DNA of 64,000 bases, taken from Gemmatimonadota bacterium (lineage in GTDB: Bacteria > JAAXHH01). Made by a program: the position numbers and the translations under genes. Positions 1 through 54,127 of the stretch are shown in pieces. The DNA is taken from positions 18,494 through 82,493 of the forward strand of contig VXRC01000024.1 of NCBI GenBank assembly GCA_009838645.1. The letters run 5' to 3'. Under the pieces are notes generated by a model. The model was not told where the DNA came from and made no database searches. It saw only the letters and a program-made list of their open reading frames with translations. The first letter of the stretch is position 1. Every line of letters begins with the position of its first letter.

Positions 1-582
1 ACGGACGGATTCCTGTTCCCCAACCGGGTCCTGGAGGAAAGGGGGCTCATGCAGCGGAAGGGTTTTCCGGAAAGCTACGATCTCCGGCGCCTGGTGCGGA
101 CGATGGCGGACGTGAAGTCGGGCCGCGAATCGGTTACCGTTCCGGTGTACCGGCACCTGATCTACGATATCGTGCCGGGCGTCGAAAAGACGATCACGCA
201 GCCGGACATCATCATCCTGGAGGGGCTGAACATCCTGCAGACCGGCCATCACCTGACCGGCGACGCGTCGCCCCGCGTCTTCGTCTCCGATTTCATCGAT
301 TTCTCGATCTACGTGGAGGCGGAGGAACACGACCTGGAGCAGTGGTACGTCGATCGCTTCCTCAGGCTGCGGGACACCGCGTTCCGGAACCCAGAATCCT
401 ACTTCCATCACTATGCGGGGTTGAGCACGGAAGAGGCAGTGGAAACGGCCCGGGGGATCTGGCGGGACATCAACCTGGTGAATCTGCGCGAGAACATCAT
501 CCCGACGCGCGAACGGGCGGACCTGATCCTGGAAAAGGGCACGAACCACCGGGTGACAGGGGTGTACCAGCGAAAGTTGTAG
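1..582 (+). CDS. coaA: Type I pantothenate kinase, C-terminal ~190 aa; 5' end lies outside the window
   Basis: Frame 1 is open from nt 1. The translation ([27 protein letters not shown]...[11 protein letters not shown]...[13 protein letters not shown]...[14 protein letters not shown]) is colinear with the C-terminal half of E. coli CoaA. Stop at 580-582. Confidence 0.85.
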
Positions 583-728
583 CCAGGTGGGTTTCGTGAT
601 CAGCGCTGGGACATCAGGTGCAACTGGAATCCAGCAGAATCCAGCACACAAAACATTGTAATTAATAAAGTTATTGGATAACTACTCAGAAGTCTAGATT
701 AGAACTTTCTTCTGAGCGAAGGAGACTT

Positions 729-1805
729 ATGAGCGGTATTTGGACGAAGATCGATGGTAAATGGCGAGCTGCTTCTTCAAGGGATTTCGAACGCGAGAAA
801 GAACTTCATGACCTTGTTGAGGAGAACATTGGAATGTTACCCTTAGCTGGTTCTCCTCGTCTTTTTGTGCTTGGTCGAGAAGTGCAGCTGGGTAGTGGAT
901 ATGCCGATTTGTTGGCGGTAGAGGCATCCGGTCGCCCAGTCATTGCCGAAGTAAAGCTTGCCAGGAGTTCTGAAGCCAAACGGGCGATTGTGGCGCAGGT
1001 GATTTCGTATGCGGCGTTTCTTCAGGGATTCGATGTCGAATCTCTGGCAAAAGGGCCATTGAGCAAATCGCTGTCTGACCGGGAACAAGATTCTATTCTA
1101 GGCATGGTAATGACACAGGACCAGGAAGATGAGATTGACTCCGATACTTTTGAGACTTCGCTGCAGGAGTATCTGACCAACGGCATGTTCAGGCTCGTAC
1201 TTATAATGGACGATTCGTCTGAAGAATTGGAACGTGTAATCGCATATCTCGATTCCGTTACGAAGCAGTCACTTACTATAGATCTAATTACATTCCGGAT
1301 TTACTACGTAAATGGTACGGAAGTCGCAATGCCGCAACGAATATCACCAGATCTCAGTTTGACGTCGGATTCTGTGAGTGGGCTGTCAACTAAGAGAGCA
1401 TCTAAAGCAAGAAAGTCTGATGGTCCAGACGCTTTTATTGCTTCGTTTTCTGATATCGAAGGTGAAATTCGAGAGGTGTTTAATCAGCTTGTGGATTGGG
1501 CGATAGAGATTGAGAAAATCCAGGGAGTAAACCTGTATACGGCTACAGGTGTGAATAAAAGCAGATTTACGCTACTGCCTAGACTTGCAACGGAAAATGC
1601 TGGACTCATCACGATCTGGAACGATAACAAAAAACCATACATTTCGTTTTGGCGTGGAGTTTTTGAGAGGCGAGCACCAAACTCGATTGAAGCAGTGGAA
1701 AAAGCAGCGGGCTTAAAAATCGGCCATGGCAATGTCGTTAATGAAATCTCATCAGCTCTATTGGATGCATTGAAATCAGCATACTTAGAGGCAACAAAAT
1801 CTTAG
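729..1805 (+). CDS. PD-(D/E)xK nuclease-fold protein: NucS/DUF91-like N-terminal domain (GYADLLAVEASGRPVIAEVKLARSSEAKRAIVAQVISYA) plus a ~250-aa uncharacterized C-terminal region
   Basis: 1077-nt ORF with an AGGAG RBS (719-723) before the ATG. The N-terminal ~100 aa match the D...E-x-K core pattern of the NucS C-domain/DUF91. The gene and its flank (600-1810) are ~45% GC against a ~65% backbone. Confidence 0.55.
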   Translation: MSGIWTKIDGKWRAASSRDFEREKELHDLVEENIGMLPLAGSPRLFVLGREVQLGSGYADLLAVEASGRPVIAEVKLARSSEAKRAIVAQVISYAAFLQGFDVESLAKGPLSKSLSDREQDSILGMVMTQDQEDEIDSDTFETSLQEYLTNGMFRLVLIMDDSSEELERVIAYLDSVTKQSLTIDLITFRIYYVNGTEVAMPQRISPDLSLTSDSVSGLSTKRASKARKSDGPDAFIASFSDIEGEIREVFNQLVDWAIEIEKIQGVNLYTATGVNKSRFTLLPRLATENAGLITIWNDNKKPYISFWRGVFERRAPNSIEAVEKAAGLKIGHGNVVNEISSALLDALKSAYLEATKS

Positions 1806-1834
1806 CGTCTGGAACCACCCCTCCACATCGATCG

Positions 1835-3424
1835 TCACCGCAGAAACCGTTTCAGCACGTTGGACGTGACCCTGGACACCACGTCGTCCACGAGGATCGA
1901 CGAGGGGTAGGTGATCGATCCCGCAGAGAAAACCATCCCTCCGCTGTCCGTCTCATGGACGACCATTTCGGCCCCGCCGTCGTCTACGTTGGTTCCCTTG
2001 GCAAGCAGGTGAGTGTTCTTGGGCGAGTTCCGTGTGATCTTGTCCGTTTCGTGTCCCGACGCCCCTCCGGGTACCCGTTCGTGCAGGCTCGCTTCGCCGA
2101 AGATGTCTCCCACCGCGACGCCGGTACCCTCGAAGACCCAGTGACCCGCGTCGACCACGCGGTAGGGCGCGCTGGTCATGATCCCCGTGCGGGTGAAGGC
2201 CACACCGAGAAGGTTGGCCTCGGATTCGTTGTAGATGTTGAAGCGGCTTTCGATGCCCTCCCCTGGCCGGTCGAGCGAATCGATGTTGCCGTTCCTGACC
2301 TTCATCGTGTATTCGTCGACGAACTCGACCTCACAGTTCAGGCCGTTGCCGCCCAGGTACATGAGCCGGCCGCCGGATTCGAACACCCAGTCCTTGAGCT
2401 GGTAGTACATGTCCCGCGACCAGTATTCCGGATGGGTGGTGGTGATAAGCACCCTGTACCCGTCCAGGGGCAGCGTGCCGTCGTGAAACTGAGTCTCGGC
2501 GTAGAGGTCGTAGCCGAATCCCTCCCGTTCCATCCAGGCCAGGAACCGCCACTCGGCGGGCGCCACATGACAGGCCGCGCGGCCCCGGATCATGTCGGTG
2601 GCTTCCGTGTCCGCTGGGATATGATTGATGGGTTCCGGCCGGTCGAAGGAGAGCGGCGCGTAGTCGTCGGCGCTGTACATCCGGTGCTTCGAATCGGTAT
2701 ACCGCTTCAGGTCGTACCGTGCGTTGACCGTGGGGGTCGGGGGAAAGGCATCGGTGTGGATGTAGTTGCTGCGGCCCCCGAAGTTGTTGTAGGCGTTCCA
2801 GTTGATGTTGGCGGCCAGTACGGCGACGCCGGTCGTCGGCGCGGCGGGCGCGACGATCCAGGGGAAGGAGAAAAAACCGCCCACCTCCGTGGACGCGTGG
2901 AGGTAGTACAGGCCGGACCGTTCCGGCGCCTCGATGTACTGTTTGTGGGCGGGGTTCGTATAGCCCTGGGTATTCCACCGCACCCCGGTCCGGGTATAGT
3001 CGCCGTCGGGCGTGATCTGCATGGTGGCGCGGGGGCCGTGTTCGTCGTACCAGCCGATGTTCCGCACGAACTCCTTCTTCCATCCGTAGCGGTACAATTC
3101 GAGCTGGTAAGCCTCCACCGCGTGCACGCGGAACTCCGATTTCTCCCCGGACCGGACCCACTTGGGCCACATGTACCCCAGCAGGCTGTCCCGCAGCAGC
3201 CGGAAATGGTACGGCTCCCCATCGCGCGGGGTCATGTACACGCTCTTGTACCCGAAATCCGGGCCTGCCAGCGTGACCCTGTACTCCCGGCCTGGCTTCA
3301 CGTCCGCGTAGACCGACCCCGTGGCCCGGGAGCGCGCCTCGATGGACGCTCCATCGGCTTCGAATTCCAGCAGGACATCGGGAATGGCGACGTAGCGTTC
3401 GTCGCTGACGTACCCTACAAGCAT
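1835..3424 (-). CDS. N,N-dimethylformamidase beta-subunit-like family protein (family assignment tentative)
   Basis: The long ORF is 1835..3529. The likely start is the ATG at 3422-3424 (MLVGYVSDERY...), preceded by GGAGGT. The 529-aa product resembles large DMFase beta-subunit-like hydrolases. Assignment rests on recollection of family motifs, not a search. Confidence 0.5.
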   Translation of the reverse strand: MLVGYVSDERYVAIPDVLLEFEADGASIEARSRATGSVYADVKPGREYRVTLAGPDFGYKSVYMTPRDGEPYHFRLLRDSLLGYMWPKWVRSGEKSEFRVHAVEAYQLELYRYGWKKEFVRNIGWYDEHGPRATMQITPDGDYTRTGVRWNTQGYTNPAHKQYIEAPERSGLYYLHASTEVGGFFSFPWIVAPAAPTTGVAVLAANINWNAYNNFGGRSNYIHTDAFPPTPTVNARYDLKRYTDSKHRMYSADDYAPLSFDRPEPINHIPADTEATDMIRGRAACHVAPAEWRFLAWMEREGFGYDLYAETQFHDGTLPLDGYRVLITTTHPEYWSRDMYYQLKDWVFESGGRLMYLGGNGLNCEVEFVDEYTMKVRNGNIDSLDRPGEGIESRFNIYNESEANLLGVAFTRTGIMTSAPYRVVDAGHWVFEGTGVAVGDIFGEASLHERVPGGASGHETDKITRNSPKNTHLLAKGTNVDDGGAEMVVHETDSGGMVFSAGSITYPSSILVDDVVSRVTSNVLKRFLR

Positions 3425-3685
3425 CTTGGACCTCCGGTTGGCGGATGTTCCGGCACGGTTTCCGGCCGTTGTGAGCATTGCGGGCTTGCATGGTGTCTGG
3501 TTGTGCTGAGGACCAGACCCGGAAGACAATGTACACCGAACTTCATCGCCGTCAACCGTACCGGCGAGTCACACCGCAACCGCCGAATTACCTTTGACAC
3601 GGAATCGGGGCGGATGTTACCTTGGCAGTCCGTGTAGTGAGCCGAATCCCTCGTACGTTTTCTATTCGACAAGGACCCTGGCATC

Positions 3686-6445
3686 GTGCCTGCCTGCCGG
3701 TTCAAAGATATCGCGCGCCTGGCCGAACCCGGCGACAACGTGGCCATCGTCTCCCGGCGTCTGGAAGCGGGAACGGACGTGAGAGACGACGCCGGCGCGT
3801 CCTTCTCCCTCGCCCATACCTTGCTGGAAGGGCACCGGTTCGCCGTCCAGCCCATACCCGCCGGGGAGTTCGTCCTGTCCTGGGGTCTGCCCTTCGGCCG
3901 GGCGACCCGGGACATCGCGCCCGGCGACTACCTCTGCAACCCGGACATCCTCGACGCGCTCCGCGTCCGAAAAGTCGATTTCGCCCTCCCGGACCAGCCC
4001 AATTTCGAAGACCGCGTAGTGCCCTACGAACTGGACGAATCCACCTTCAAAGCAGGCGAGCAGGTACCGCTCAGTAACCGTCCGCCGGAGTTCGACGGTT
4101 TCGACCGCGGTCCGGCGCGAGGTGTCGGGACCCGAAACTATATCATTCTGCTGGGCATTACGTCGCAGTCGACGGGTTTCGTGCGGCGCCTGGAATCGCT
4201 GCTGAAGGGCCAGGTGGATCGGTACCCGAACATCGACGGGGTGGTGGCGGTAGCCCATACCGAGGGCGGCTCGGGCGTGGATCCCAACAACCGGGAACTG
4301 GTGCTGCGGACACTGGCGGGTTTCATGGTCCATTCCAACGTCGGGGCGGTGCTTGCGGTGGACCGCGGCACCGAGTTCGTCTCGGACAGGATGCTCGAAA
4401 ACTACATGCGGCTCAACCGCTATCCATTGAACGATGTTCCCCACCGGTTCGAGACGCTCAAGGGCGGGTTCGAAGAGGACCTGGAGCGCTGCGCGGGGAT
4501 CGTCACCGGATGGTTCGAGACGGTCAACCGAGTTTCGCGGAAACCGGCTTCCGCGTCTCATCTCAACATCGTGCTTCAATGCGGTGGTTCCGATTCCTTT
4601 TCGGGCATATCGGGCAATCCCCTGGCCGCACTCGTGGCCCGGGAGATCATACGCTTCGGCGGGAAGGCCAATCTCGCGGAGACGGACGAGCTCATCGGCG
4701 GCGAGCCCTACGTACTGGACAACGTGCGGGACATCGAGACGGCCCGAACTTTCCTCCATATGATCGAGCGGTTTCAGGAACGCACGGCGTGGCACGGCCA
4801 GTCGGTGGACGCCAATCCGTCCGGCGGCAACAAGCTGCGGGGAATCTACAATATCGTGCTCAAGTCCATCGGCGCGGCCCGGAAGCGACATCCCGACGTA
4901 CGCCTCGACTACGCCATCGATTACGCGGTTCCGATGAAGGATCCGGGGTACTACTTCATGGACAGTCCGGGCAACGACCTGGAAGCCATCGCGGGGCAAG
5001 TGGCCTCCGGCGGCAATCTCATCTTCTTCATAACCGGGAATGGATCCATCACCAACTTCCCCTTCGTGCCGACGATCAAGTTCGTGACGACCACGAAGCG
5101 GTACGAGATGCTTTCGGGTGAAATGGACGTGAACGCCGGTGCCTACCTGGACGGCGTGTCCATGGAAGAACTTGGCGGGCAGACGCTCGATCTGACGCTG
5201 CGAGCGGCGTCGGGCGAGTTGACCCGCGGCGAGCGGGCGGGCCACAGCCAGACCCAGATCTGGCGCGACTGGCGGCAGACCGACGGAAGCCGGCTGCAGG
5301 ACCTGCGCGAACGTCCCGTGCCGGCGGGCAGGCCGCTGGAGGTCCGGTCGAACGGGGAATCGACGCCCCCGCCGGCTTTCAGCTTGCCCGTGTTCGAATC
5401 GAACGGATTGCGCGCCACAGAACGGATCGGCCTCATACTTCCCACCAGCCTGTGCTCCGGCCAGATCGCCCGCATAGCCGCGGAACGGTTGAGCGAAAAA
5501 GGCGTGGGGCAAGGCGCCGGCCTATCCCGTTTCGTCGCCCTGGTACACACCGAGGGATGCGGAGTTTCGGGCGGCGTCTCGGAGGAAATGTACATCCGCA
5601 CCATGGCCGGCTACCTGACCCACCCGATGACGGCGGCCGCCCTGCTCCTGGAACACGGATGCGAACGCACGCACAACGATTTCTACCGCCAGCAACTGGT
5701 CGACCGCGGCCTGGATCCCGCTAGTTTCGGCTGGGCCAGCGTGCAGCTCGACGGCGGCATCGAGAAGGTCATCGATCGCATAGAGCAATGGTTTAACGGG
5801 ACCCTGGACGAGTGCGCGGGTCCGGTCGCCGTCGAAGCCGGCCTGTCTACCCTCAGGTTGGGGGTGGCCACGGTAGGTTTGGCTGCCACGGCCGGTCCGG
5901 CTACGATCTTGTGTCCGGCTACCACGGCCGGTCCGGTTTCCGATGACGTTTCCGAAACGTTTTTTAAGTTGATCTTCGATGTCGTAGACGCGGGCGGCAC
6001 GGTCGTCGTGCCGGACAACGACGCGCTGCTCGAATACCCGGCTTTCATGCGGCGCCTGGAGGATGGAACCATATCCCCGACATTGTCCTATGGAGAGCCC
6101 GCTTCGGTACCTGGGCTTCACGTCATGGAGACGCAGACAGCCCACTGGGTAGAGACCCTGACCGGGCTGGGCGCGGCCGGCGTGGAGCTGGTCGTCGCCG
6201 GCGTCGGCGGCCCCCCCCTGCCCGGCCATCCCATGATCCCGGTGCTGCAGGTCGCCGCGGACGACCTGGCCAGCCCTTTCCGTGAAGACGTGGATCTCAT
6301 CCTGACCGGGGAACCGTTGAATCGGTGCCAGGCCGTGCTGGACCTGATCCGGAATACGGCCGCCGGGAGGCATGCGCCGCGGACCGTGGTCGTCGGCAAC
6401 ACGGATTTCCAGATAACGCGCGGATTACTCGGCGTCTCGGTGTGA
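3686..6445 (+). CDS. Altronate/galactarate dehydratase (UxaA/GarD) family protein, 919 aa, with a second degenerate UxaA-like repeat at the C-terminus
   Basis: N-terminal SAF-like segment (DNVAIVSRRLEAGTDV), then the UxaA core (GTRNYIILLGITSQSTG...AVAHTEGGSG...NLIFFITGNGSITNFPFVPTIKFVTT). Residues ~570-919 repeat the pattern (GLILPTSLCSGQIARIAAERL...ALVHTEGCGVSGG...). The halves are joined by a low-complexity linker encoded by direct DNA repeats at 5860-5950. Confidence 0.6.
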   Translation: MPACRFKDIARLAEPGDNVAIVSRRLEAGTDVRDDAGASFSLAHTLLEGHRFAVQPIPAGEFVLSWGLPFGRATRDIAPGDYLCNPDILDALRVRKVDFALPDQPNFEDRVVPYELDESTFKAGEQVPLSNRPPEFDGFDRGPARGVGTRNYIILLGITSQSTGFVRRLESLLKGQVDRYPNIDGVVAVAHTEGGSGVDPNNRELVLRTLAGFMVHSNVGAVLAVDRGTEFVSDRMLENYMRLNRYPLNDVPHRFETLKGGFEEDLERCAGIVTGWFETVNRVSRKPASASHLNIVLQCGGSDSFSGISGNPLAALVAREIIRFGGKANLAETDELIGGEPYVLDNVRDIETARTFLHMIERFQERTAWHGQSVDANPSGGNKLRGIYNIVLKSIGAARKRHPDVRLDYAIDYAVPMKDPGYYFMDSPGNDLEAIAGQVASGGNLIFFITGNGSITNFPFVPTIKFVTTTKRYEMLSGEMDVNAGAYLDGVSMEELGGQTLDLTLRAASGELTRGERAGHSQTQIWRDWRQTDGSRLQDLRERPVPAGRPLEVRSNGESTPPPAFSLPVFESNGLRATERIGLILPTSLCSGQIARIAAERLSEKGVGQGAGLSRFVALVHTEGCGVSGGVSEEMYIRTMAGYLTHPMTAAALLLEHGCERTHNDFYRQQLVDRGLDPASFGWASVQLDGGIEKVIDRIEQWFNGTLDECAGPVAVEAGLSTLRLGVATVGLAATAGPATILCPATTAGPVSDDVSETFFKLIFDVVDAGGTVVVPDNDALLEYPAFMRRLEDGTISPTLSYGEPASVPGLHVMETQTAHWVETLTGLGAAGVELVVAGVGGPPLPGHPMIPVLQVAADDLASPFREDVDLILTGEPLNRCQAVLDLIRNTAAGRHAPRTVVVGNTDFQITRGLLGVSV

Positions 6446-9304: not shown

Positions 9305-10999
9305 GTGGCCGTGATGGGCCAGCAGGCGGCGGGATTCACCGTCGTGAAAATCGATCCGGCCACCGGCGCGACGTCCCAGGCGACTTCGCCCGATCCCACC
9401 GCCAATTTCCCCACGGGCGCCTTGCGCACCCGAGATGGCCGGATCTACGTCGGCGCCGCCTACGCCGGGCATCTCCACTGTTACGATCCCAAGACGGAAC
9501 AGTTGGACGACCTGGGCGCCATCAACCTGCCCGACGATACCTTCCCCTGTAATATGGATGAAGACGAAAACGGCGTAATCTGGATCGGATGCTACGGGTC
9601 GGCCGGCCTGACGAGCTACGACCCGGCGTCCGGTGCGTTCACCCGCCACGGGCGGATGGACGAGACCGACATGTACTGCTATCCCTACGTGGGCGCCGGG
9701 GGAACGGTCGCCTGCAACATCAGGATGACCCGTCCGCACGTGGTCGTCTACGATCCAGTATCGGGCCGGCGCGAGACCGTGGGACCCGTGGTGGTCACGG
9801 AGGACGGGGGATCGCTTAACCTGTACAGGGCGGCCGACGACCAACTCTACATCCGGTCGACCGCAGGCGATTTCAGACTGGACGGCTTCGAGGCCAAACC
9901 CGTTGCAGCCCTCCCCGACCCGGCGCCGCCGCTGACGATGTCCGACGGATCCACGGCGGATTTCGCTGACCGGGAAATCCAGATGTTCCGCGAGATGGCC
10001 ATTACCCGGCCGGAATCCGGCGGGACGCGCATCTTGCCCGTAGCCTACGAGTCCGCGGGCAGCGAGATCTTCCTGGTGCATCGCGGGCCCGACGACAACC
10101 TGTACGGTTCGAGCATCCTGCCTCTGCACCTGTTTCGACATGATCCGTCCACCGGCGCCATGGACGACCTGGGCATATGCACCACCGCCACCGGGGAAGC
10201 CTATTCCATGGCCAACATGGACGGCAGCCTCTACATCTGTTCCTACCCGGGCGCCGTGCTGTCCGTCTACGATCCTGCCCGGCCCTATCACTTTGGAAAG
10301 GACACCGGCAGCAACCCCCGGGATCTCGGCCGCATGGACGAATTCTCCTATCGACCACGTTCCATGGTCGCAGGTCCGCTTGGCCGGGTGTGGACGGCCT
10401 CCGTACCGAACTACGGCATGTGGGGAGGACCGTTGTCCTGGTACGATCCGGTCGCGGATGCGTTCGGTACCTATCGCGATATCGCCGGGGAAGCCAGTTG
10501 CTGGTCACTGGCCTGGCTGGAGGCCCATGGCCTGCTGGCCATCGGGACGACGATCGACGGCGGCACCGGCACGCAGCCGCGCGTAGACCAGGCGTCGCTG
10601 TTCCTCTGGGATTACGAGAAGGAGGAAAAGGTGTGGGAAGGCCGGCTTCCGGTAGAGGTTACGGCCGTCGACGCGCTGGCCGTCATGGACGGCGGCCTGC
10701 TATGCGGGACGGCCCGTGCGGGATCCGGGTCCATCCTATTCGATTTCGATGCAGGTGACTGGCGATTCGTGCACCTGGCTTCCCTGCCGGGTGGTCGCTC
10801 GCTGGAAGGTGGCCTCCAGACCGGTCCCGATGGCGGGATATACGGATTTACGACCGAATGTTTCTACCGTTTCGATGCCGCCGCCGGCGTTGTGACCACG
10901 ATTCACGAAGCGCCGTCCGCCTTCCAGAATCCCGGTCCGATGTACGGGGACGGTGTCTACTTCACGAAGAAACACGAGCTGAAGAAACTGGTGTTCTGA
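9305..10999 (+). CDS. Hypothetical beta-propeller repeat protein; no signal peptide evident
   Basis: 564-aa ORF starting at GTG (an in-frame ATG follows 3 codons later). A YDPxxG-like motif recurs about every 50 aa (CYDPKTEQ, SYDPASGAF, VYDPVSGRR, VYDPARPYH, WYDPVADAF). Confidence 0.45.
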   Translation: MAVMGQQAAGFTVVKIDPATGATSQATSPDPTANFPTGALRTRDGRIYVGAAYAGHLHCYDPKTEQLDDLGAINLPDDTFPCNMDEDENGVIWIGCYGSAGLTSYDPASGAFTRHGRMDETDMYCYPYVGAGGTVACNIRMTRPHVVVYDPVSGRRETVGPVVVTEDGGSLNLYRAADDQLYIRSTAGDFRLDGFEAKPVAALPDPAPPLTMSDGSTADFADREIQMFREMAITRPESGGTRILPVAYESAGSEIFLVHRGPDDNLYGSSILPLHLFRHDPSTGAMDDLGICTTATGEAYSMANMDGSLYICSYPGAVLSVYDPARPYHFGKDTGSNPRDLGRMDEFSYRPRSMVAGPLGRVWTASVPNYGMWGGPLSWYDPVADAFGTYRDIAGEASCWSLAWLEAHGLLAIGTTIDGGTGTQPRVDQASLFLWDYEKEEKVWEGRLPVEVTAVDALAVMDGGLLCGTARAGSGSILFDFDAGDWRFVHLASLPGGRSLEGGLQTGPDGGIYGFTTECFYRFDAAAGVVTTIHEAPSAFQNPGPMYGDGVYFTKKHELKKLVF

Positions 11000-11196
11000 A
11001 AAACGAAGGATCGTAGTTACCACGACGCAAAGGTAGAGGATGCAAACTGAAGAGATAAAGTGTATAAACTATTGAAAATATGAATCATAAGTATATTACT
11101 CCACGCCGTACAATGACCTTGACAGATTCGACCGCATACGGTAACTATGCATTGGCTTTTGTTGAGCATCGCCAACCAATCACAAGGATCCGTCAG

Positions 11197-14351: not shown

Positions 14352-14414
14352 TAAGTCGGTTTTGAAGTCGAGATGAAGTTTGATTGAGGTAGAGTTTACG
14401 AAGCGAAGTTGAAG

Positions 14415-14834
14415 TCAGGACACCAGATTCCTGATCTCGTCGGACACGAATTCGACCAGGATCTGGTTTTCCAGCCAGACTTCGTAGAGCGGTCCGCCCA
14501 GCCTCGGCCGAAAGCGGTGGTGAAGTCCATGCGATTCCGCCACCGCTTTCAAATGGTCGAGGCTTTGCTGCGTTTCAAGCAGAAAATGGGTCGAATTGAA
14601 ATTCTGTACCTCTTCAACCGGTCTGAATTCCGCGGCGTGTTCCCCGGGGCAGAGCAGGTAGATGTTCGGGATAAATTCGATCATCTCACCCGACTGACAG
14701 TCCCAAGCGCATACCCAGGCACCTTCCATGGTCCTCGATGTGAATGGATATACTGATCCATACGTCAATTCTGCCAGAACCCTCGCTGCCCTTTCGGGTT
14801 TTGATGCCGTAATGGAAAGGTGTTTGATCTTCAT
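14415..14834 (-). CDS. VOC (glyoxalase/bleomycin-resistance/dioxygenase) family protein
   Basis: 139 aa with a VOC-like N-terminus (MKIKHLSITASKPERAARVLAEL). Lies in a lower-GC block. Confidence 0.4.
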   Translation of the reverse strand: MKIKHLSITASKPERAARVLAELTYGSVYPFTSRTMEGAWVCAWDCQSGEMIEFIPNIYLLCPGEHAAEFRPVEEVQNFNSTHFLLETQQSLDHLKAVAESHGLHHRFRPRLGGPLYEVWLENQILVEFVSDEIRNLVS

Positions 14835-14890
14835 ATGGCGATGCGACTCTATATGGGTGTGTAATCTGCAGAACGCTCACAAGCGTTGCG

Positions 14891-15214
14891 TTATTCACGC
14901 GGTTCAGTATGGATAAGAAAGACCTTCGTTTCAAATCCTCCTCTTTTCTCCTTCTTCGCGTTTCTCATTTTCTCGAGTTGTATCGGATCAATTCCCATTC
15001 GAGACGCAATAGCGTATACCACCTCCAGGATATCAACTAATTCCTCGGCGTCATTGGAAGTGTTGAATTCCCCGACTTCCTCCACAAGTTTGCGTCTGAG
15101 TTCATGAATATACTCGGCCCTGTCGAGAACTCGGGTCGTCGGACGATCGCCCGCAGCAGCAATGATATCGGGAATCCTGTCCCGCACAAGCTTGTTGTGG
15201 TCAACTCGTTTCAT
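14891..15214 (-). CDS. MazG-like nucleoside triphosphate pyrophosphohydrolase (PRA-PH fold)
   Basis: MKRVDHNKLVRDRIPDII...EELVDILEVVYAIA, characteristic of small all-alpha NTP-PPases. GGAAGG lies 8-13 nt upstream of the ATG at 15212-15214. Confidence 0.5.
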   Translation of the reverse strand: MKRVDHNKLVRDRIPDIIAAAGDRPTTRVLDRAEYIHELRRKLVEEVGEFNTSNDAEELVDILEVVYAIASRMGIDPIQLEKMRNAKKEKRGGFETKVFLIHTEPRE

Positions 15215-15239
15215 TGCTGCACCTTCCACGGCGTAATTG

Positions 15240-15623
15240 TCAAAACCGAACCTGGCCTGCAGGTGTCACGTCTGCGAAGTCACCGAGGATATCATTATAG
15301 TGAGCGATAATCTGCTCTGCTGTAAGTACATCGGAATCGAAAGTACTGTGTCCATCCTTGACTAGCGTTATCGAATATCCTGCAATACGAGCATGATGGC
15401 AGGTCGTGCTGATACAGTTCTCGGTTTGAACGCCTGTAATGAATAACCTGCCGATCTCCTTTTCATTCAAAATAGATGCTAACTGAGCTTCGCAAAACGC
15501 ATCCGGAGTTCGTTTCTGAACGACGATATCTCCCTTCTGCGGGGAAACCCGTTCGTGTATATGCCATCCTGGTGAATCCGTCCGATCCGGGTCGCCCGGT
15601 TTTCCGTTGTGTACGTTGCCCAA
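15240..15623 (-). pseudogene. Isochorismatase-family hydrolase fragment (C-terminal ~2/3 only; the N-terminal catalytic Asp region is missing)
   Basis: WHIHERVSPQKGDIVVQKRTPDAF...LFITGVQTENCISTTCHHARIAGYSITLVKDGHST matches the C-terminal part of YcaC-like isochorismatases. The upstream gene ends 9 nt away, leaving no room for the N-terminal ~60 aa. Confidence 0.4.
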
Positions 15624-15632
15624 TGTCGTTTC

Positions 15633-16559
15633 CTATATGCATTCCACGATGCGGTCTTCAATCTCAGCCAGCTCTTCGAATTGCCCTACCGTGCTTTTCC
15701 AGTCTTCCTGCGTGGCATAGTACTGCGCCAGTCCGTATGACTCGGCTTTTTTGACCAACCATTCCGCGGTTTCAGTTTGGTCTGCCGACTTCATGAAATC
15801 GGCCGCATCGAGGCAACGACGGGCGCCGATCGGCAGGACGAAGTGGACCAGCATGGCCGCGAATCCTTTGGGCGGTATACCGCGGATCACCTCGGCGGCC
15901 ATCCGGAACGCCTGCGAACCTCCAAAAAAGACCGGACCGGAGGGGGCGGCATGAATCAGTTCTCGTGCGTTTTCCAGCGTAGCCTTCAGCATGTCTTCGG
16001 TCGATACCTGACGGTCTTCCCGGAAATCGCCGCGCAGGGTGTATGCACTTGTTGCGTAGCCGAGATCAGTGGCATTCCACGCACGCAAAAGGTCATCGAC
16101 CGGCAGTACCGCGAATGGATAGAATTGCGGGTCATGCACCTGTACACGGTCGCCTTCGAGTTTCAGAGCTATAATGAAATGGTCTCCGCCACGTTTCAGC
16201 CGGTGATTCGGGTCATAGGGCAGGAAACCCAGGTCCAGGGGACCAAGCAGTACGGGGCCGTTCTTCAGGTTAGCTTTTAATGCTTCAAGAGCCGATTCAA
16301 CATCGTCACCCTCCCACTGTGTACACGTCCAACCCAGAATGCTGAGCGCACGGGACATCCCGCTGTTAGGATTCAGGTCGGCGTGGCTAGGGAAGAACAG
16401 TGGAGTATCAAACTGCAGGAACAGCTCGCCGAACGGCATACCCGTCATGCATTCCAACAGGCCGGGTTCCGGAAGATCGGCCATGCCGGCGTGCTGCAGA
16501 CACATGTGAAGGCTGTTGCTGTAACAGTAATGGCTGTTCCCGGTATAAGCGATGTGCAT
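15633..16559 (-). CDS. Papain-like fold protein, BtrH_N/DUF4872-like (tentative)
   Basis: 308 aa with an N-terminal Cys-containing motif (HYCYSNSLHMCL) reminiscent of BtrH N-terminal/peptidase-C39-like domains. Assignment by recollection only. Confidence 0.35.
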   Translation of the reverse strand: MHIAYTGNSHYCYSNSLHMCLQHAGMADLPEPGLLECMTGMPFGELFLQFDTPLFFPSHADLNPNSGMSRALSILGWTCTQWEGDDVESALEALKANLKNGPVLLGPLDLGFLPYDPNHRLKRGGDHFIIALKLEGDRVQVHDPQFYPFAVLPVDDLLRAWNATDLGYATSAYTLRGDFREDRQVSTEDMLKATLENARELIHAAPSGPVFFGGSQAFRMAAEVIRGIPPKGFAAMLVHFVLPIGARRCLDAADFMKSADQTETAEWLVKKAESYGLAQYYATQEDWKSTVGQFEELAEIEDRIVECI

Positions 16560-16705
16560 TTGCTGATCCTCTCGTCAAATATCGCAATGGATCGAATAAA
16601 CCCTCATTGTTTAAATGGGATTCATCCAGACCAATATACTATATATTTGTTTAGTATATGTCAAGAAATACGAGAGGAAACTTCCAGGTTTTTGCAGAAA
16701 AACAT

Positions 16706-17698
16706 TCAGGGTATTCCGAGCGTCCTACCGATCCTGTCCACCACGTCGTCGATCCTTTCCAGGTACCGCATCGCCGCCTTGTAGGTGGGCATGAGTACCC
16801 GCTGCTCATCCACCTCGCCATCCAGGTACTGGTCGGCCATCCAGAGATAGATGGAGAGTTCGTAGATCGTCCATTCAGGATCTTTCGGGGTGTTGCCGTA
16901 TCCTTCATAGAAAGCGGCCGGTGTGGGGCCGATCGGCTTCAACCGGAAGATCTCCAGCCTGGCCAGGTCCCAGGTCGGATCGCCGGACCAGGCGTACTCC
17001 CAGTCGAGCCAGGCGGAACACCTCCAGTGGCCGGTTTCCTCGTGAACCAGCACGTTCCAGGGATGGGGATCGTTGTGCAGCAGGACCAGGGGTCTTTCGT
17101 TCAGCAGGGGTACCGTTTGCTTCAGTACCCGCTTCATCGACGACAGTTCGAAACGAAGTCCCGGGTCCCGCTTCAGCAGGCTCTCCGCATGCCGCACGGC
17201 CTGGTGGTAGTGAAAGTCACCCCAGGTTCCTTCGTCAAAAGGCTGAATGCGTTCTCCGACGATCAATCCCGGGCAGCGATCGGAAAGCTGGATGGCGTGC
17301 ACTTTTCGTAACGCGGCGCCGACAGCCCGCCAGGCCTGAGCGCGCTGTCCATCGGTCAGGTTATCGACAACGTTCCCCAGAAGGGATCCGGGTTTGAATT
17401 CCATCAGCACGGCGCATCCGTCTTCATCATCGTGATGCGCGACAATGGCCGGCACGGGTACGCCATGCTTCGATAACAAATCGTGCAAATAAAGTTCTTT
17501 TTCGACCCTTTGCAGGTCGTCATCTGTAGCGTAAGGCCATTCGTATTCGCGGAGGATGTAGCGTGTGTCGTCCCGGAGTTTTACGAGGGACGTTCGATTG
17601 GTCACGCCGGTATTGAGCGGCTCGACAGATCGGATGGGATTACGGCTTTGCCCGGCTTCGGCGAGTAGTCTTGGAAGGAATGCAGGAAGCTGGGACAT
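16706..17698 (-). CDS. Aminoglycoside phosphotransferase (APH)/choline-kinase-family small-molecule kinase
   Basis: Catalytic-loop and DFG-like motifs (LLHNDPHPWNVLV, DWEYAWSGDPTWDLA) typical of the APH fold. Confidence 0.65.
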   Translation of the reverse strand: MSQLPAFLPRLLAEAGQSRNPIRSVEPLNTGVTNRTSLVKLRDDTRYILREYEWPYATDDDLQRVEKELYLHDLLSKHGVPVPAIVAHHDDEDGCAVLMEFKPGSLLGNVVDNLTDGQRAQAWRAVGAALRKVHAIQLSDRCPGLIVGERIQPFDEGTWGDFHYHQAVRHAESLLKRDPGLRFELSSMKRVLKQTVPLLNERPLVLLHNDPHPWNVLVHEETGHWRCSAWLDWEYAWSGDPTWDLARLEIFRLKPIGPTPAAFYEGYGNTPKDPEWTIYELSIYLWMADQYLDGEVDEQRVLMPTYKAAMRYLERIDDVVDRIGRTLGIP

Positions 17699-17713
17699 GA
17701 GGTATGCACGCTT

Positions 17714-18019
17714 TCAGTTCGATCGGTTTAGCACGCGTACTTCAGTCTTCAATCGTTCTCCCAGCCGATCCCTTTGCAACTCCAGGTCATAGTGGGTCTG
17801 CAGATTCAGCCAGAATCGATCCGTAGTTCCGAAATAGCGAGCCAGTCGTAAAGCGGTGTCGGCCGAAATGGCGCGTTTGCCGTGCACGATCTCGTTTATG
17901 CGGCGCGGGGGAACTGAAATATCCACGGCAACACGGTACTGACTCAGACCTAGTGGTTCGAGAAACTCTTCCTTGAGGATCTCTCCGGGATGAATCGGAG
18001 GCATAATAGCAGCAGGCAT
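17714..18019 (-). CDS. higA: HigA-family antitoxin-like XRE HTH protein (no HigB partner present)
   Basis: MPAAIMPPIHPGEILKEEFLEPLGLSQYRVAVDISVPPRRINEIVHGKRAISADTALRLARYFGTTDRFWLNLQTHYDLE is a textbook HigA/VapI N-terminus. AGGAG lies 8 nt upstream of the ATG at 18017-18019. The APH gene starts 16 nt downstream. Confidence 0.7.
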   Translation of the reverse strand: MPAAIMPPIHPGEILKEEFLEPLGLSQYRVAVDISVPPRRINEIVHGKRAISADTALRLARYFGTTDRFWLNLQTHYDLELQRDRLGERLKTEVRVLNRSN

Positions 18020-18187
18020 GTGAAACTCCTGGTGGTAGTCTACAAGTTCGTCCACAAAAACGGTCTTTGAACGATAGGATCATGCCAATACTATAGTAAC
18101 GTTATGTGAATCCTTTAAACACTGTTTCCTCATCGGTCCAGACGCCAACACAACAGCCATCTGGTTTATATCCGGGGACACCACGCC

Positions 18188-53641: not shown

Positions 53642-54127
53642 ATGCCTGACTACGTGACACACAAAGCCATTGCACTTGTGCTTCGACCGGATAGTGCGGG
53701 GTACAGTCTCCTTGCATTGTCGGGTTATGCTCCTAGCACGTAAAACCCGTCTCCCTTGCGTTTTCCGGGCGGGAACCTGGATCCCGGAGAAACGCCCGAG
53801 GAAGCAATGTACCGGGAACTGTTTGAAGAGTCAGGCTTGGGACCACTGAAACTACTGCGCAAACTAGGCGTGCACCGTTACTACAAAGAGTTCATTCGGT
53901 CACAAGTCGAAAGACACGACTTTCTACTTCTCGCTCCGAACCATACTCCAGATCAATGGTCTCACAGGGTCACAGGAGGAGATGGCGACATCAAATGTAT
54001 CTTCTCATACCGGTGGTTACAGAAAGACGAATTTGACCTACTATCTGATGAACTCACCACTTTTGTCACACTGGAACACATACCCGAACTGTTCAATGGC
54101 AAGACTCCTAGGTCATCTCATAAATAA
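53642..54127 (+). pseudogene. NUDIX hydrolase gene interrupted by an in-frame TAA (53741-53743)
   Basis: MPDYVTHKAIALVLRPDSAGYSLLALSGYAPST-[TAA]-NPSPLRFPGGNLDPGETPEEAMYRELFEESGL reads through into a complete Nudix box (GX5EX7REUXEEXGU). Both parts share one frame. The region is ~45% GC. Confidence 0.5.

Follow-up and report, generated by a model that had tools for sequence, protein, structure and literature searches.

A two-domain NucS-type nuclease gene in horizontally acquired DNA of a Gemmatimonadota bacterium, a candidate one-protein defence endonuclease

NucS/EndoMS proteins (PF01939 NucS_C; PDB entries 2vld and 5gke) are mismatch endonucleases, and NucS is a core repair gene. DUF4268 and MGMT-like DNA_binding_1 domains have been described as fusions to GmrSD type IV restriction enzymes (PMC4619093), and two DUF4268-containing nucleases, MdgA and MdgB, were obtained by functional metagenomic selection (PMC12366544; bioRxiv 10.1101/2025.02.28.640651). 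MdgA and MdgB protect E. coli from T4 but not from unmodified T4-GT7 (PMC12366544). Purified MdgA degrades T4 DNA, and its E77A mutant is inactive (PMC12366544). Here we analysed a stretch of 64,000 nucleotides from a Gemmatimonadota bacterium (assembly GCA_009838645.1, contig VXRC01000024.1, positions 18,494 to 82,493), which we call the window. Near its start, a low-GC insert between coaA and a gene resembling the beta subunit of N,N-dimethylformamidase (the DMFase-like gene) carries a single gene, called gene X here, whose product we compared with these nucleases (Table 1).

We delimited the insert by its composition and by relatives that do not carry it. In 200-nt windows the GC content was 0.42-0.52 over positions 601-1800 versus 0.59-0.70 in the flanks (0.59-0.62 ahead of the drop, 0.60-0.66 on return), and the block 583-1834 has 45.5% GC versus 62.2% for the whole window. 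At third codon positions (GC3) gene X stands at 0.42, with the neighbouring genes all at 0.80-0.88. Scanning metagenome contigs with the DMFase-like protein yielded two empty-site loci, L090 (LXNJ01012842.1) and L091 (MKWU01010379.1; L numbers designate individual loci throughout), in which coaA and the DMFase-like gene are directly adjacent, separated by 12 and 81 nt, respectively. Both are close to the window, with protein identities of 91% for the DMFase-like protein and 91-96% for the coaA product. The DNA of L091 aligns to window positions 1-582 and 1838-3453, and that of L090 to 1-585 and 1841-3999. Because homology to these two loci breaks there, the limits of the insert were set at 583-1837, a length of 1255 nt. 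In farther relatives (L093-L099, 78-82% identity) the gap between the two genes is 16-57 nt. Positions 583-1837 are therefore horizontally acquired DNA in the short spacer of the convergent coaA and DMFase-like genes, which bears out the insertion proposed in an initial annotation of the window. That annotation had placed the block at 600-1810, slightly inside the limits given by the empty sites, and had described a fall in GC from ~65% to ~45%; the low block is real, and the level from which it falls is about 62%, not 65%. Its further statements, that the block holds one open reading frame (ORF) and that no integrase or tRNA accompanies it, agree with our results: we found no tRNA and no Rfam family in the whole window, and none of the genes called within 10 kb encodes an integrase on contig VYES01000020.1 (GCA_009842775.1), on which a protein identical to the gene X product was called. 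No terminal direct or inverted repeats and no target-site duplication were found at 583/1837.

The architecture of the X protein was derived from an AlphaFold2 model based on a 42-sequence alignment (mean predicted local distance difference test score, pLDDT, of 82). In the model, a short beta-hairpin (residues 5-14) precedes a PD-(D/E)xK core made up of a helix (23-40), three strands (46-54, 57-64 and 70-76) and a second helix (81-98). A helical insert (~103-151) is followed by a strand (154-160), a helix (165-178) and a hairpin (182-204), after which a disordered linker (211-228) leads to a separate C-terminal domain that is presumed to be a DNA- or ligand-recognition module. The ~250 residues that had initially been left unassigned are thus accounted for by the helical insert, the remainder of the nuclease fold, the disordered linker and an alpha/beta domain of 125 aa. 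In an alignment of 71 members of the family, the most divergent at 26% identity, the sole invariant residues were E23, P38, D60, E74, K76, Q90, Y94, G152, R155 and L167. The D60...E74-V-K76 pattern, on which the earlier likeness to NucS C-domain/DUF91 nucleases had been based, is therefore present and invariant in the family, and the model has the nuclease fold with the catalytic D/E/K kept. When the profile of the 71 members was searched against PDB sequences it matched only NucS (E 0.0026) and EndoMS (E 0.092); the same sequences had given no match when searched with X alone or with an earlier profile of 42 sequences. In the profile alignment to 2vld_A, residues E23, D60, E74, K76, Q90 and Y94 of X fall on E127, D160, E174, K176, Q187 and Y191 of NucS, positions that we take to include the NucS catalytic residues and the QxxxY motif of RecB/Cas4 type. 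We conclude that gene X encodes a NucS/RecB-type PD-(D/E)xK nuclease domain and that its product is a predicted DNA cutter.

The comparison with NucS/EndoMS shows how far this likeness goes. X has the same conserved E, D, ExK and QxxxY residues, but it lacks the N-terminal DNA-binding and dimerisation domain of NucS, carries its nuclease at the N-terminus instead, and adds a helical insert of ~50 aa and an unrelated C-terminal alpha/beta domain. It scores 12.1 bits against a threshold of 24 for Pfam NucS_C and 18.7 against 216 for NCBIfam NF003270. Unlike the core gene nucS, gene X is accessory, horizontally spread and foreign in GC, with empty sites in close relatives. By domain layout, by score and by its behaviour in genomes, X is not NucS. 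Nor is it Cas4: the protein has no cysteine and therefore no Cas4-type Fe-S cluster, it reaches 13.8 bits where the Pfam Cas4 cut-off is 22.7, and no cas genes lie nearby. X gave no match to the PADLOC models for Shedu (SduA) or Hachiman (HamA), and in contrast to Hachiman HamA and Can2 it has neither a helicase partner nor a CARF domain. Like the type IV enzymes of the GmrSD kind, X is a stand-alone nuclease without an adjacent cognate methyltransferase or immunity gene. A DUF4268-type relative adjoins X in some genomes, and two family members carry an alkyltransferase-like fusion that we read as DNA_binding_1-type, both of which recall the accessory domains of GmrSD. The nuclease fold of GmrSD is different, however (DUF262/DUF1524, His-Me finger), and a modification dependence of X would be drawn by analogy. 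Judged by sequence, X is only a partial match to PDC-S11, a PADLOC candidate (NucS-like nuclease) that we group with DUF4268 proteins such as MdgA and MdgB.

Against the PADLOC models for PDC-S11, X gave E 1.4e-18 with PDLC04916 and E 3.2e-11 with PDLC04915, and ten divergent members of the family matched PDLC04916 too, all those tested lying between E 1e-6 and 1e-18. When the X and DUF4268 families were compared by hhalign with larger alignments and a mact setting of 0.05, the alignment was collinear over 268 columns with a probability of 84% and E 8e-6. PDC-S11, MdgA and MdgB are, like X, single proteins (~315-375 aa) in which an N-terminal nuclease precedes an accessory domain at the C-terminus. 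X differs in its nuclease motif, since its ExK is replaced by ENQ in the neighbouring DUF4268 family: the motif of the DUF4268 partner protein described below reads D...VVIE77NQ, with Q where K is expected. E77 of this partner shares its residue number with the E77A mutant of MdgA, so that MdgA may be of this type. By these profile comparisons X is a remote relative of the DUF4268/PDC-S11 nucleases, with an added helical insert and a C-terminal domain that may or may not be homologous to DUF4268.

The history of the insert could be followed by comparing the same chromosomal slot among relatives. X occupies the slot between coaA and the DMFase-like gene in L089 (93% protein identity) and in L003, L004, L083, L084, L085 and L086 (85-86%). 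In L083-L086 the slot holds two genes, namely X and, 78 nt further on, a 315-aa gene with Pfam DUF4268, which is a full-length match to the PADLOC PDC-S11 model PDLC04914 (E 7.6e-59, positions 4-308 of 314). The pair of X and DUF4268 genes was also found in two unrelated contexts, L087/L088 and L054, whose X shares 64-65% identity with that of the window; the DUF4268 neighbours in L054, L083 and L087 cover positions 1-311 of 314 of PDLC04914. The spacing between the two genes is 56-78 nt across the three contexts, and no DNA homology beyond the ORFs was found between cassettes of different contexts. A small HTH_3 gene on the opposite strand follows the pair in L087/L088, and two small low-GC genes on the minus strand, without annotation, follow it in L054. 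In the window, L089, L003 and L004, the only neighbours of X are coaA and the DMFase-like gene. L003 and L004 have kept ~45 nt of the spacer between X and the DUF4268 gene, and in the comparison of the window with L083, homology ends at the end of X (L083 position 11102) and returns at the stop codon of the DMFase-like gene (L083 position 12282). A neighbour-joining tree of the DMFase-like gene, calculated without bootstrap and with short internal branches, placed the two-gene genomes at the base and the empty-site genomes inside the X-bearing clade. The simplest history, in which the order of events is inferred, is that the two-gene cassette entered once, that the DUF4268 gene was deleted in the lineage of the window, and that the whole insert was lost in L090/L091. 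Gene X is thus alone in the insert, as had been described, but only secondarily so, since sister genomes hold a second, DUF4268 nuclease gene in the slot. We note two further observations on these contexts. In L087 a NotI-family restriction endonuclease and a D12-class methyltransferase (L087:2057-3867) lie ~4-6 kb upstream of the X and DUF4268 cassette, which therefore sits in a small defence neighbourhood in that genome. What looks like a second variable spot, flanked by the LPG_synthase and UPF0261 genes, lies some kb ahead of coaA; it contains a phage integrase with portal and HCP genes in L085 (L085:2-4466), a Peptidase_M78 gene in L083 (L083:4531-5631) and, on the window's own contig outside the window, a low-GC HTH_3 gene (L001:6144-6395).

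We next considered whether gene X is maintained. Among six syntenic orthologs, in all of which the ORF is intact, the ratio of nonsynonymous to synonymous divergence (dN/dS) of X was 0.05-0.13 over dS values of 0.36-0.78, as low as in the housekeeping neighbours. Synonymous divergence of X kept pace with that of its flanks: between the window and L089 it was 0.36 for X, 0.30 for coaA and 0.33 for the DMFase-like gene, and between the window and L085 the corresponding values were 0.73, 0.66 and 0.74. Purifying selection on X persists in the four genomes that have no partner gene. X is thus inherited vertically, co-diverging with its flanks under purifying selection. The close homologs are indeed syntenic, as core genes would be, yet they are not of normal GC: each of the six orthologs (window, L003, L004, L083, L085 and L089) has a GC3 of 0.39-0.44, and the flanks have 0.77-0.86. 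Lineage-specific changes at third positions are balanced in X (32 AT->GC versus 28 GC->AT) and run strongly from GC to AT in the flanks, with 8 AT->GC versus 46 GC->AT in coaA and 9 versus 88 in the DMFase-like gene. The balance in X indicates that the gene is at a compositional equilibrium of its own, with no drift towards the GC of the host. This long-kept foreign GC may mean that composition or low expression is itself under constraint; the absence of the selection or biased gene conversion that keeps native GC3 high would be enough to explain it.

The family to which X belongs is large and has no Pfam or NCBIfam model. In a 90%-identity database we counted at least 900 homolog clusters at E <= 1e-3, nearly all of 355-360 aa, none with a Pfam domain and all named 'hypothetical', and a library of 50%-identity representatives gave 297 clusters at E <= 1e-30 and 5247 at E <= 1e-3. 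A scan of species-representative genomes returned 143 relatives, of which 80 loci were retrieved, all from metagenome-assembled genomes (MAGs). These loci spread over ~10 phyla and include Chloroflexota (Dehalococcoidia, Caldilineaceae), Acidimicrobiia (including Ca. Poriferisodalis), Gemmatimonadota, Latescibacterota and Nitrospinota, with further hosts among Acidobacteriota, Binatia, Ca. Entotheonella/Tectimicrobiota, Gammaproteobacteria (including Ca. Spongiisociaceae) and Pirellulales. Several of these lineage names and many MAG labels presumably point to sponge symbionts, and the family seems to be confined to a single type of community and to have passed across phyla. Foreign composition is widespread in it: the GC of X lies more than 5 points below that of the flanks in 43 of the 80 loci, and X has a median GC3 deficit of 0.13, compared with about 0 in the four genes to either side. 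Copies are also duplicated or broken in places, with a tandem duplicate in L055 (L055:9974-12384), two copies ~22 kb apart on the Longimicrobiales contig CAXXKM010000003.1 (L013/L023), and split, probably frameshifted copies in L025, L077 and L082 (around 10001-11080). Some members are extended at the C-terminus. In P0133 and P0146, an extension of ~110 aa can be aligned over its full length with Atl1, an alkyltransferase-like protein (3gva, E 0.004), with Trp in place of the catalytic Cys; P0142 and P0174 have a second copy of the C-domain; and P0156, P0158 and P0127 have other, unassigned extensions of 110-170 aa, that of P0156 giving no match among PDB sequences. A conserved partner gene for the family as a whole was looked for and rejected, the best flanking cluster (an SDR) occurring in 11 of 81 loci and the other clusters reflecting local synteny.

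Taken together, we lean, at somewhat better than even odds, towards reading X as a stand-alone DNA endonuclease directed against foreign DNA such as that of phages, a one-protein, restriction-like enzyme of the type IV kind that is the remnant of a cassette. The insertion, the nuclease fold and the selection on X are well supported by the data; DNA as the substrate, the role in defence and the dependence on modification are the parts of this reading that we infer. In the mechanism we propose, the NucS-type N-terminal domain would cut DNA at the metal-binding residues D60, E74 and K76, aided by E23, Q90 and Y94, and the C-terminal frataxin/YdhG/YjbR-like domain, joined in some members by the alkyltransferase-like (ATL) domain or extra C-domains, would select the substrate. 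The cue would probably be a base modification or an unusual feature of the DNA, so that X would read modifications or lesions, and with type IV-like action no adjacent methyltransferase or immunity gene would be needed. Methyltransferases were indeed rare among the 149 immediate neighbours of X at the retrieved loci, 2 matching the most frequently hit model and a handful matching any model. X would have arrived together with the PDC-S11/DUF4268 (MdgA-like) nuclease gene as a two-gene cassette, the partner having been lost later in this genome. Of the ten low-GC genes tested near X, 6-7 were of defence type, namely GmrSD (L009 and L046, in both cases 3 genes from X), PD-T7-1 with PDC-M41A (L070), HEPN_Swt1 (L078) and PDC-S11 (L054 and L080). 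Neighbours that had seemed to match PDC-M37B, DolB or IetA were rejected, as these matches proved to be ClpC AAA+ proteins.

A number of results weigh against this reading of X as a defence endonuclease. The match to PDLC04916 is partial, as the N-terminal 200 aa of X cover only profile positions 8-208 of 358 and the other members likewise only ~7-205, and Pfam DUF4268 (PF14088) gave no match to X at E <= 1. In the default hhalign comparison the X and DUF4268 families aligned with a probability of 37% over 77 columns of the nuclease core only, and in the permissive alignment the per-column confidence was near zero over the C-terminal portions seen. PDC-S11 is itself a candidate system for which the literature that we found gives correlative support only. 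The defence-island enrichment that the initial annotation had in view was not clearly seen among the 149 immediate neighbours, which are mostly housekeeping genes (ClpC, outer membrane proteins, NUDIX, MqnC) with ~5% defence-like and 1 of 149 PDC-S11-like. No relatives of X were found in IMG/VR, INPHARED phage records or PHROGs, and on plasmids there was no close relative, only distant relatives of the N-domain (22-27% identity over aa ~6-203). The ATL fusion and the similarity to NucS, finally, fit DNA repair equally well. Two of the nuclease-domain relatives borne on large plasmids, both annotated 'hypothetical protein', may be recorded here: one on the Rhodococcus plasmid NZ_CP113800.1 (L170:5962-7005), and one on the Bosea plasmid NZ_AP022849.1 from an isolate of the sponge Callyspongia (L171:5902-7146), the latter ~2.6 kb from CRISPR-associated annotations (Cas6/Cse3/CasE and a RAMP-superfamily protein).

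If X were instead an accessory, NucS-like nuclease of repair or recombination, it would cut at lesions, mismatches or branched DNA, and its C-domain (or the ATL domain) would read the damaged base. Characterised Atl1 relatives bind O6-alkylguanine lesions, so the alkyltransferase-like fusion of P0133/P0146 would suit such an enzyme, as would the fact that the only strong PDB sequence and fold matches of X are the NucS/EndoMS mismatch endonucleases, and the stable vertical inheritance of X within the clade at a dN/dS as low as that of housekeeping genes. A repair enzyme, however, would hardly be expected to come and go among equally close relatives, to be foreign in GC in most of the 80 genomes, to occur in duplicate and broken copies, or to pair with a PDC-S11/DUF4268 gene and lie in islands with GmrSD, PD-T7 and HEPN neighbours; the NucS N-terminal domain is missing besides, and the scores fall below the NucS thresholds of Pfam and NCBIfam. 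We regard this explanation as unlikely. Slightly less likely, in our estimate, is a selfish, free-standing gene similar to a homing endonuclease, which would cleave the allele of its insertion site that lacks X and spread when the break is repaired by recombination, with no benefit to the host. Such a gene would be expected to sit, as X does, as a single nuclease gene precisely in intergenic spacers of conserved genes, with clean empty sites, in widely differing contexts, with no integrase, transposase or terminal repeat and with some degraded copies. Fixed homing genes usually decay, though, whereas X shows strong purifying selection and vertical co-divergence over a dS of about 0.7; the ~80 unrelated insertion contexts would demand as many target specificities; and no similarity to known homing-endonuclease families was detected, the best sequence link being to a defence candidate.

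The recurrence of the X and DUF4268 cassette, in part with HTH_3, in three contexts at a spacing of 56-78 nt raises the further explanation that X is a toxic or abortive-infection effector that needs a partner, either the DUF4268 protein or the small HTH gene of L087/L054, and that it is orphaned, silenced or idle in the window. Low GC and the lack of a recognisable promoter would fit low expression. In most of the 80 loci, however, X stands alone with native neighbours, only 1 of 149 neighbours is PDC-S11-like, and purifying selection continues to act on X in the four genomes that have lost the partner. We therefore hold this explanation to be improbable, a little more so than a homing gene. 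That X is a decaying remnant of a mobile element or a pseudogene with no current function, as foreign GC without mobility genes and the deletion of the partner gene could be taken to mean, seems hardly credible: the ORF is intact in six orthologs with a dN/dS of about 0.1, and the catalytic residues are invariant.

The region upstream of X had been described as carrying an operator-like arrangement of repeats. The tandem repeat, GAATCCAGCA twice at 627-646, is exact, and the inverted repeat is present as well, at 8 bp rather than 7 (CTCAGAAG/CTTCTGAG at 685-692/709-716), ahead of a ribosome-binding site (RBS; AGGAG at 720-724). An operator role was nevertheless rejected, since window-specific indels of 30 and 24 nt relative to L003/L004 contain the tandem repeat and, of the inverted repeat, the left arm, and the repeats are absent from these syntenic relatives. 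The leader is a patchwork that varies in length and content in every relative (about 92, 146, 157 and 314 nt), and is shared only over the ~40 nt next to coaA and around the RBS (CTGAGCnAAGGAGAC before ATG). The repeats look like products of local slippage or indels rather than a conserved operator. Neither a sigma-70-like promoter nor a terminator was found flanking gene X. The upstream gene is co-directional with X in 75% of loci, so read-through transcription into X is possible.

Table 1. Coordinates of the insert, its gene and the flanking genes in the window, and of the second gene of the cassette in related loci.
Feature	Position	Strand	Remarks
Low-GC insert, 1255 nt	583..1837	.	First nt past the coaA stop to the stop codon of the DMFase-like gene, inclusive; defined by empty-site loci and GC
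coaA, 3' part (pantothenate kinase, native flank)	49..582	+	Pfam PRK; 316-aa product on the full contig; GC3 0.85
Leader / 5' intergenic region	583..728	+	Tandem repeat, inverted repeat, RBS; 583-624 kept in X-bearing relatives
Gene X, 358-aa two-domain nuclease	729..1805	+	ORF; ATG start; stop codon 1803-1805
NucS/RecB-type PD-(D/E)xK nuclease domain, N-terminal, aa 1-205	729..1343	+	Helical insert ~aa 100-153
Catalytic codons	D60 906-908; E74 948-950; K76 954-956	+	Q90 and Y94 in the next helix
Poorly conserved linker, aa 206-232, predicted disordered	1344..1424	+	pLDDT <50 for 211-228; no consensus residue in the family alignment
C-terminal alpha/beta-sandwich domain, aa 233-358, frataxin/YdhG/YjbR-like fold	1425..1802	+	
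Spacer, 29 nt, between the convergent stops of gene X and the DMFase-like gene	1806..1834	.	A second gene sits here in relatives
N,N-dimethylformamidase beta-subunit-like gene (DMFase-like, native flank)	1835..3424	-	Pfam DMFA2_C E 2.3e-53; 529 aa; GC3 0.85
DUF4268 / PDC-S11 gene directly after X, 315-338 aa	L083:11183-12130; L085:9868-10815; L087:9158-10141; L054:11114-12127		

Two other stretches of the window stand out by composition. A second lower-GC stretch at 14409-18055 (GC3 0.48-0.69) is probably another accessory islet of small genes, comprising an HTH_3 regulator, an APH-family phosphotransferase, a BtrH_N-domain protein, an isochorismatase fragment, a MazG-like protein and an unassigned ORF of 115 aa; none of its genes matched a PADLOC model. 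An isolated 123-aa NUDIX gene at 53756-54127 has a GC3 of 0.48 among genes at 0.75-0.87 and gives a weak, short match to PADLOC PDC-S07 (E 7e-7 over 25 residues).

More tentatively than the reading of X itself, we can envisage that X founds an uncharacterised family of one-protein, restriction-like enzymes that combines a NucS-type cutter with a frataxin/YdhG-like reader new to defence, is shared horizontally by at least 10 phyla in apparently sponge-associated communities, and is constrained in composition or low expression. Annotation pipelines call its members 'hypothetical' because no Pfam or NCBIfam model exists, and even should X prove to act in repair or to be selfish, its family would still be without annotation and worth characterising. 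The empty, one-gene and two-gene versions of one chromosomal slot in close relatives form a natural comparison set. If X is a defence nuclease, a large unannotated family would join the single-gene immune repertoire, and the PDC-S11 candidate would gain a wider, domain-swapped superfamily. The apparent restriction to sponge symbionts over many phyla, if true, would make the family a clear case of immune-gene sharing at the level of a community.

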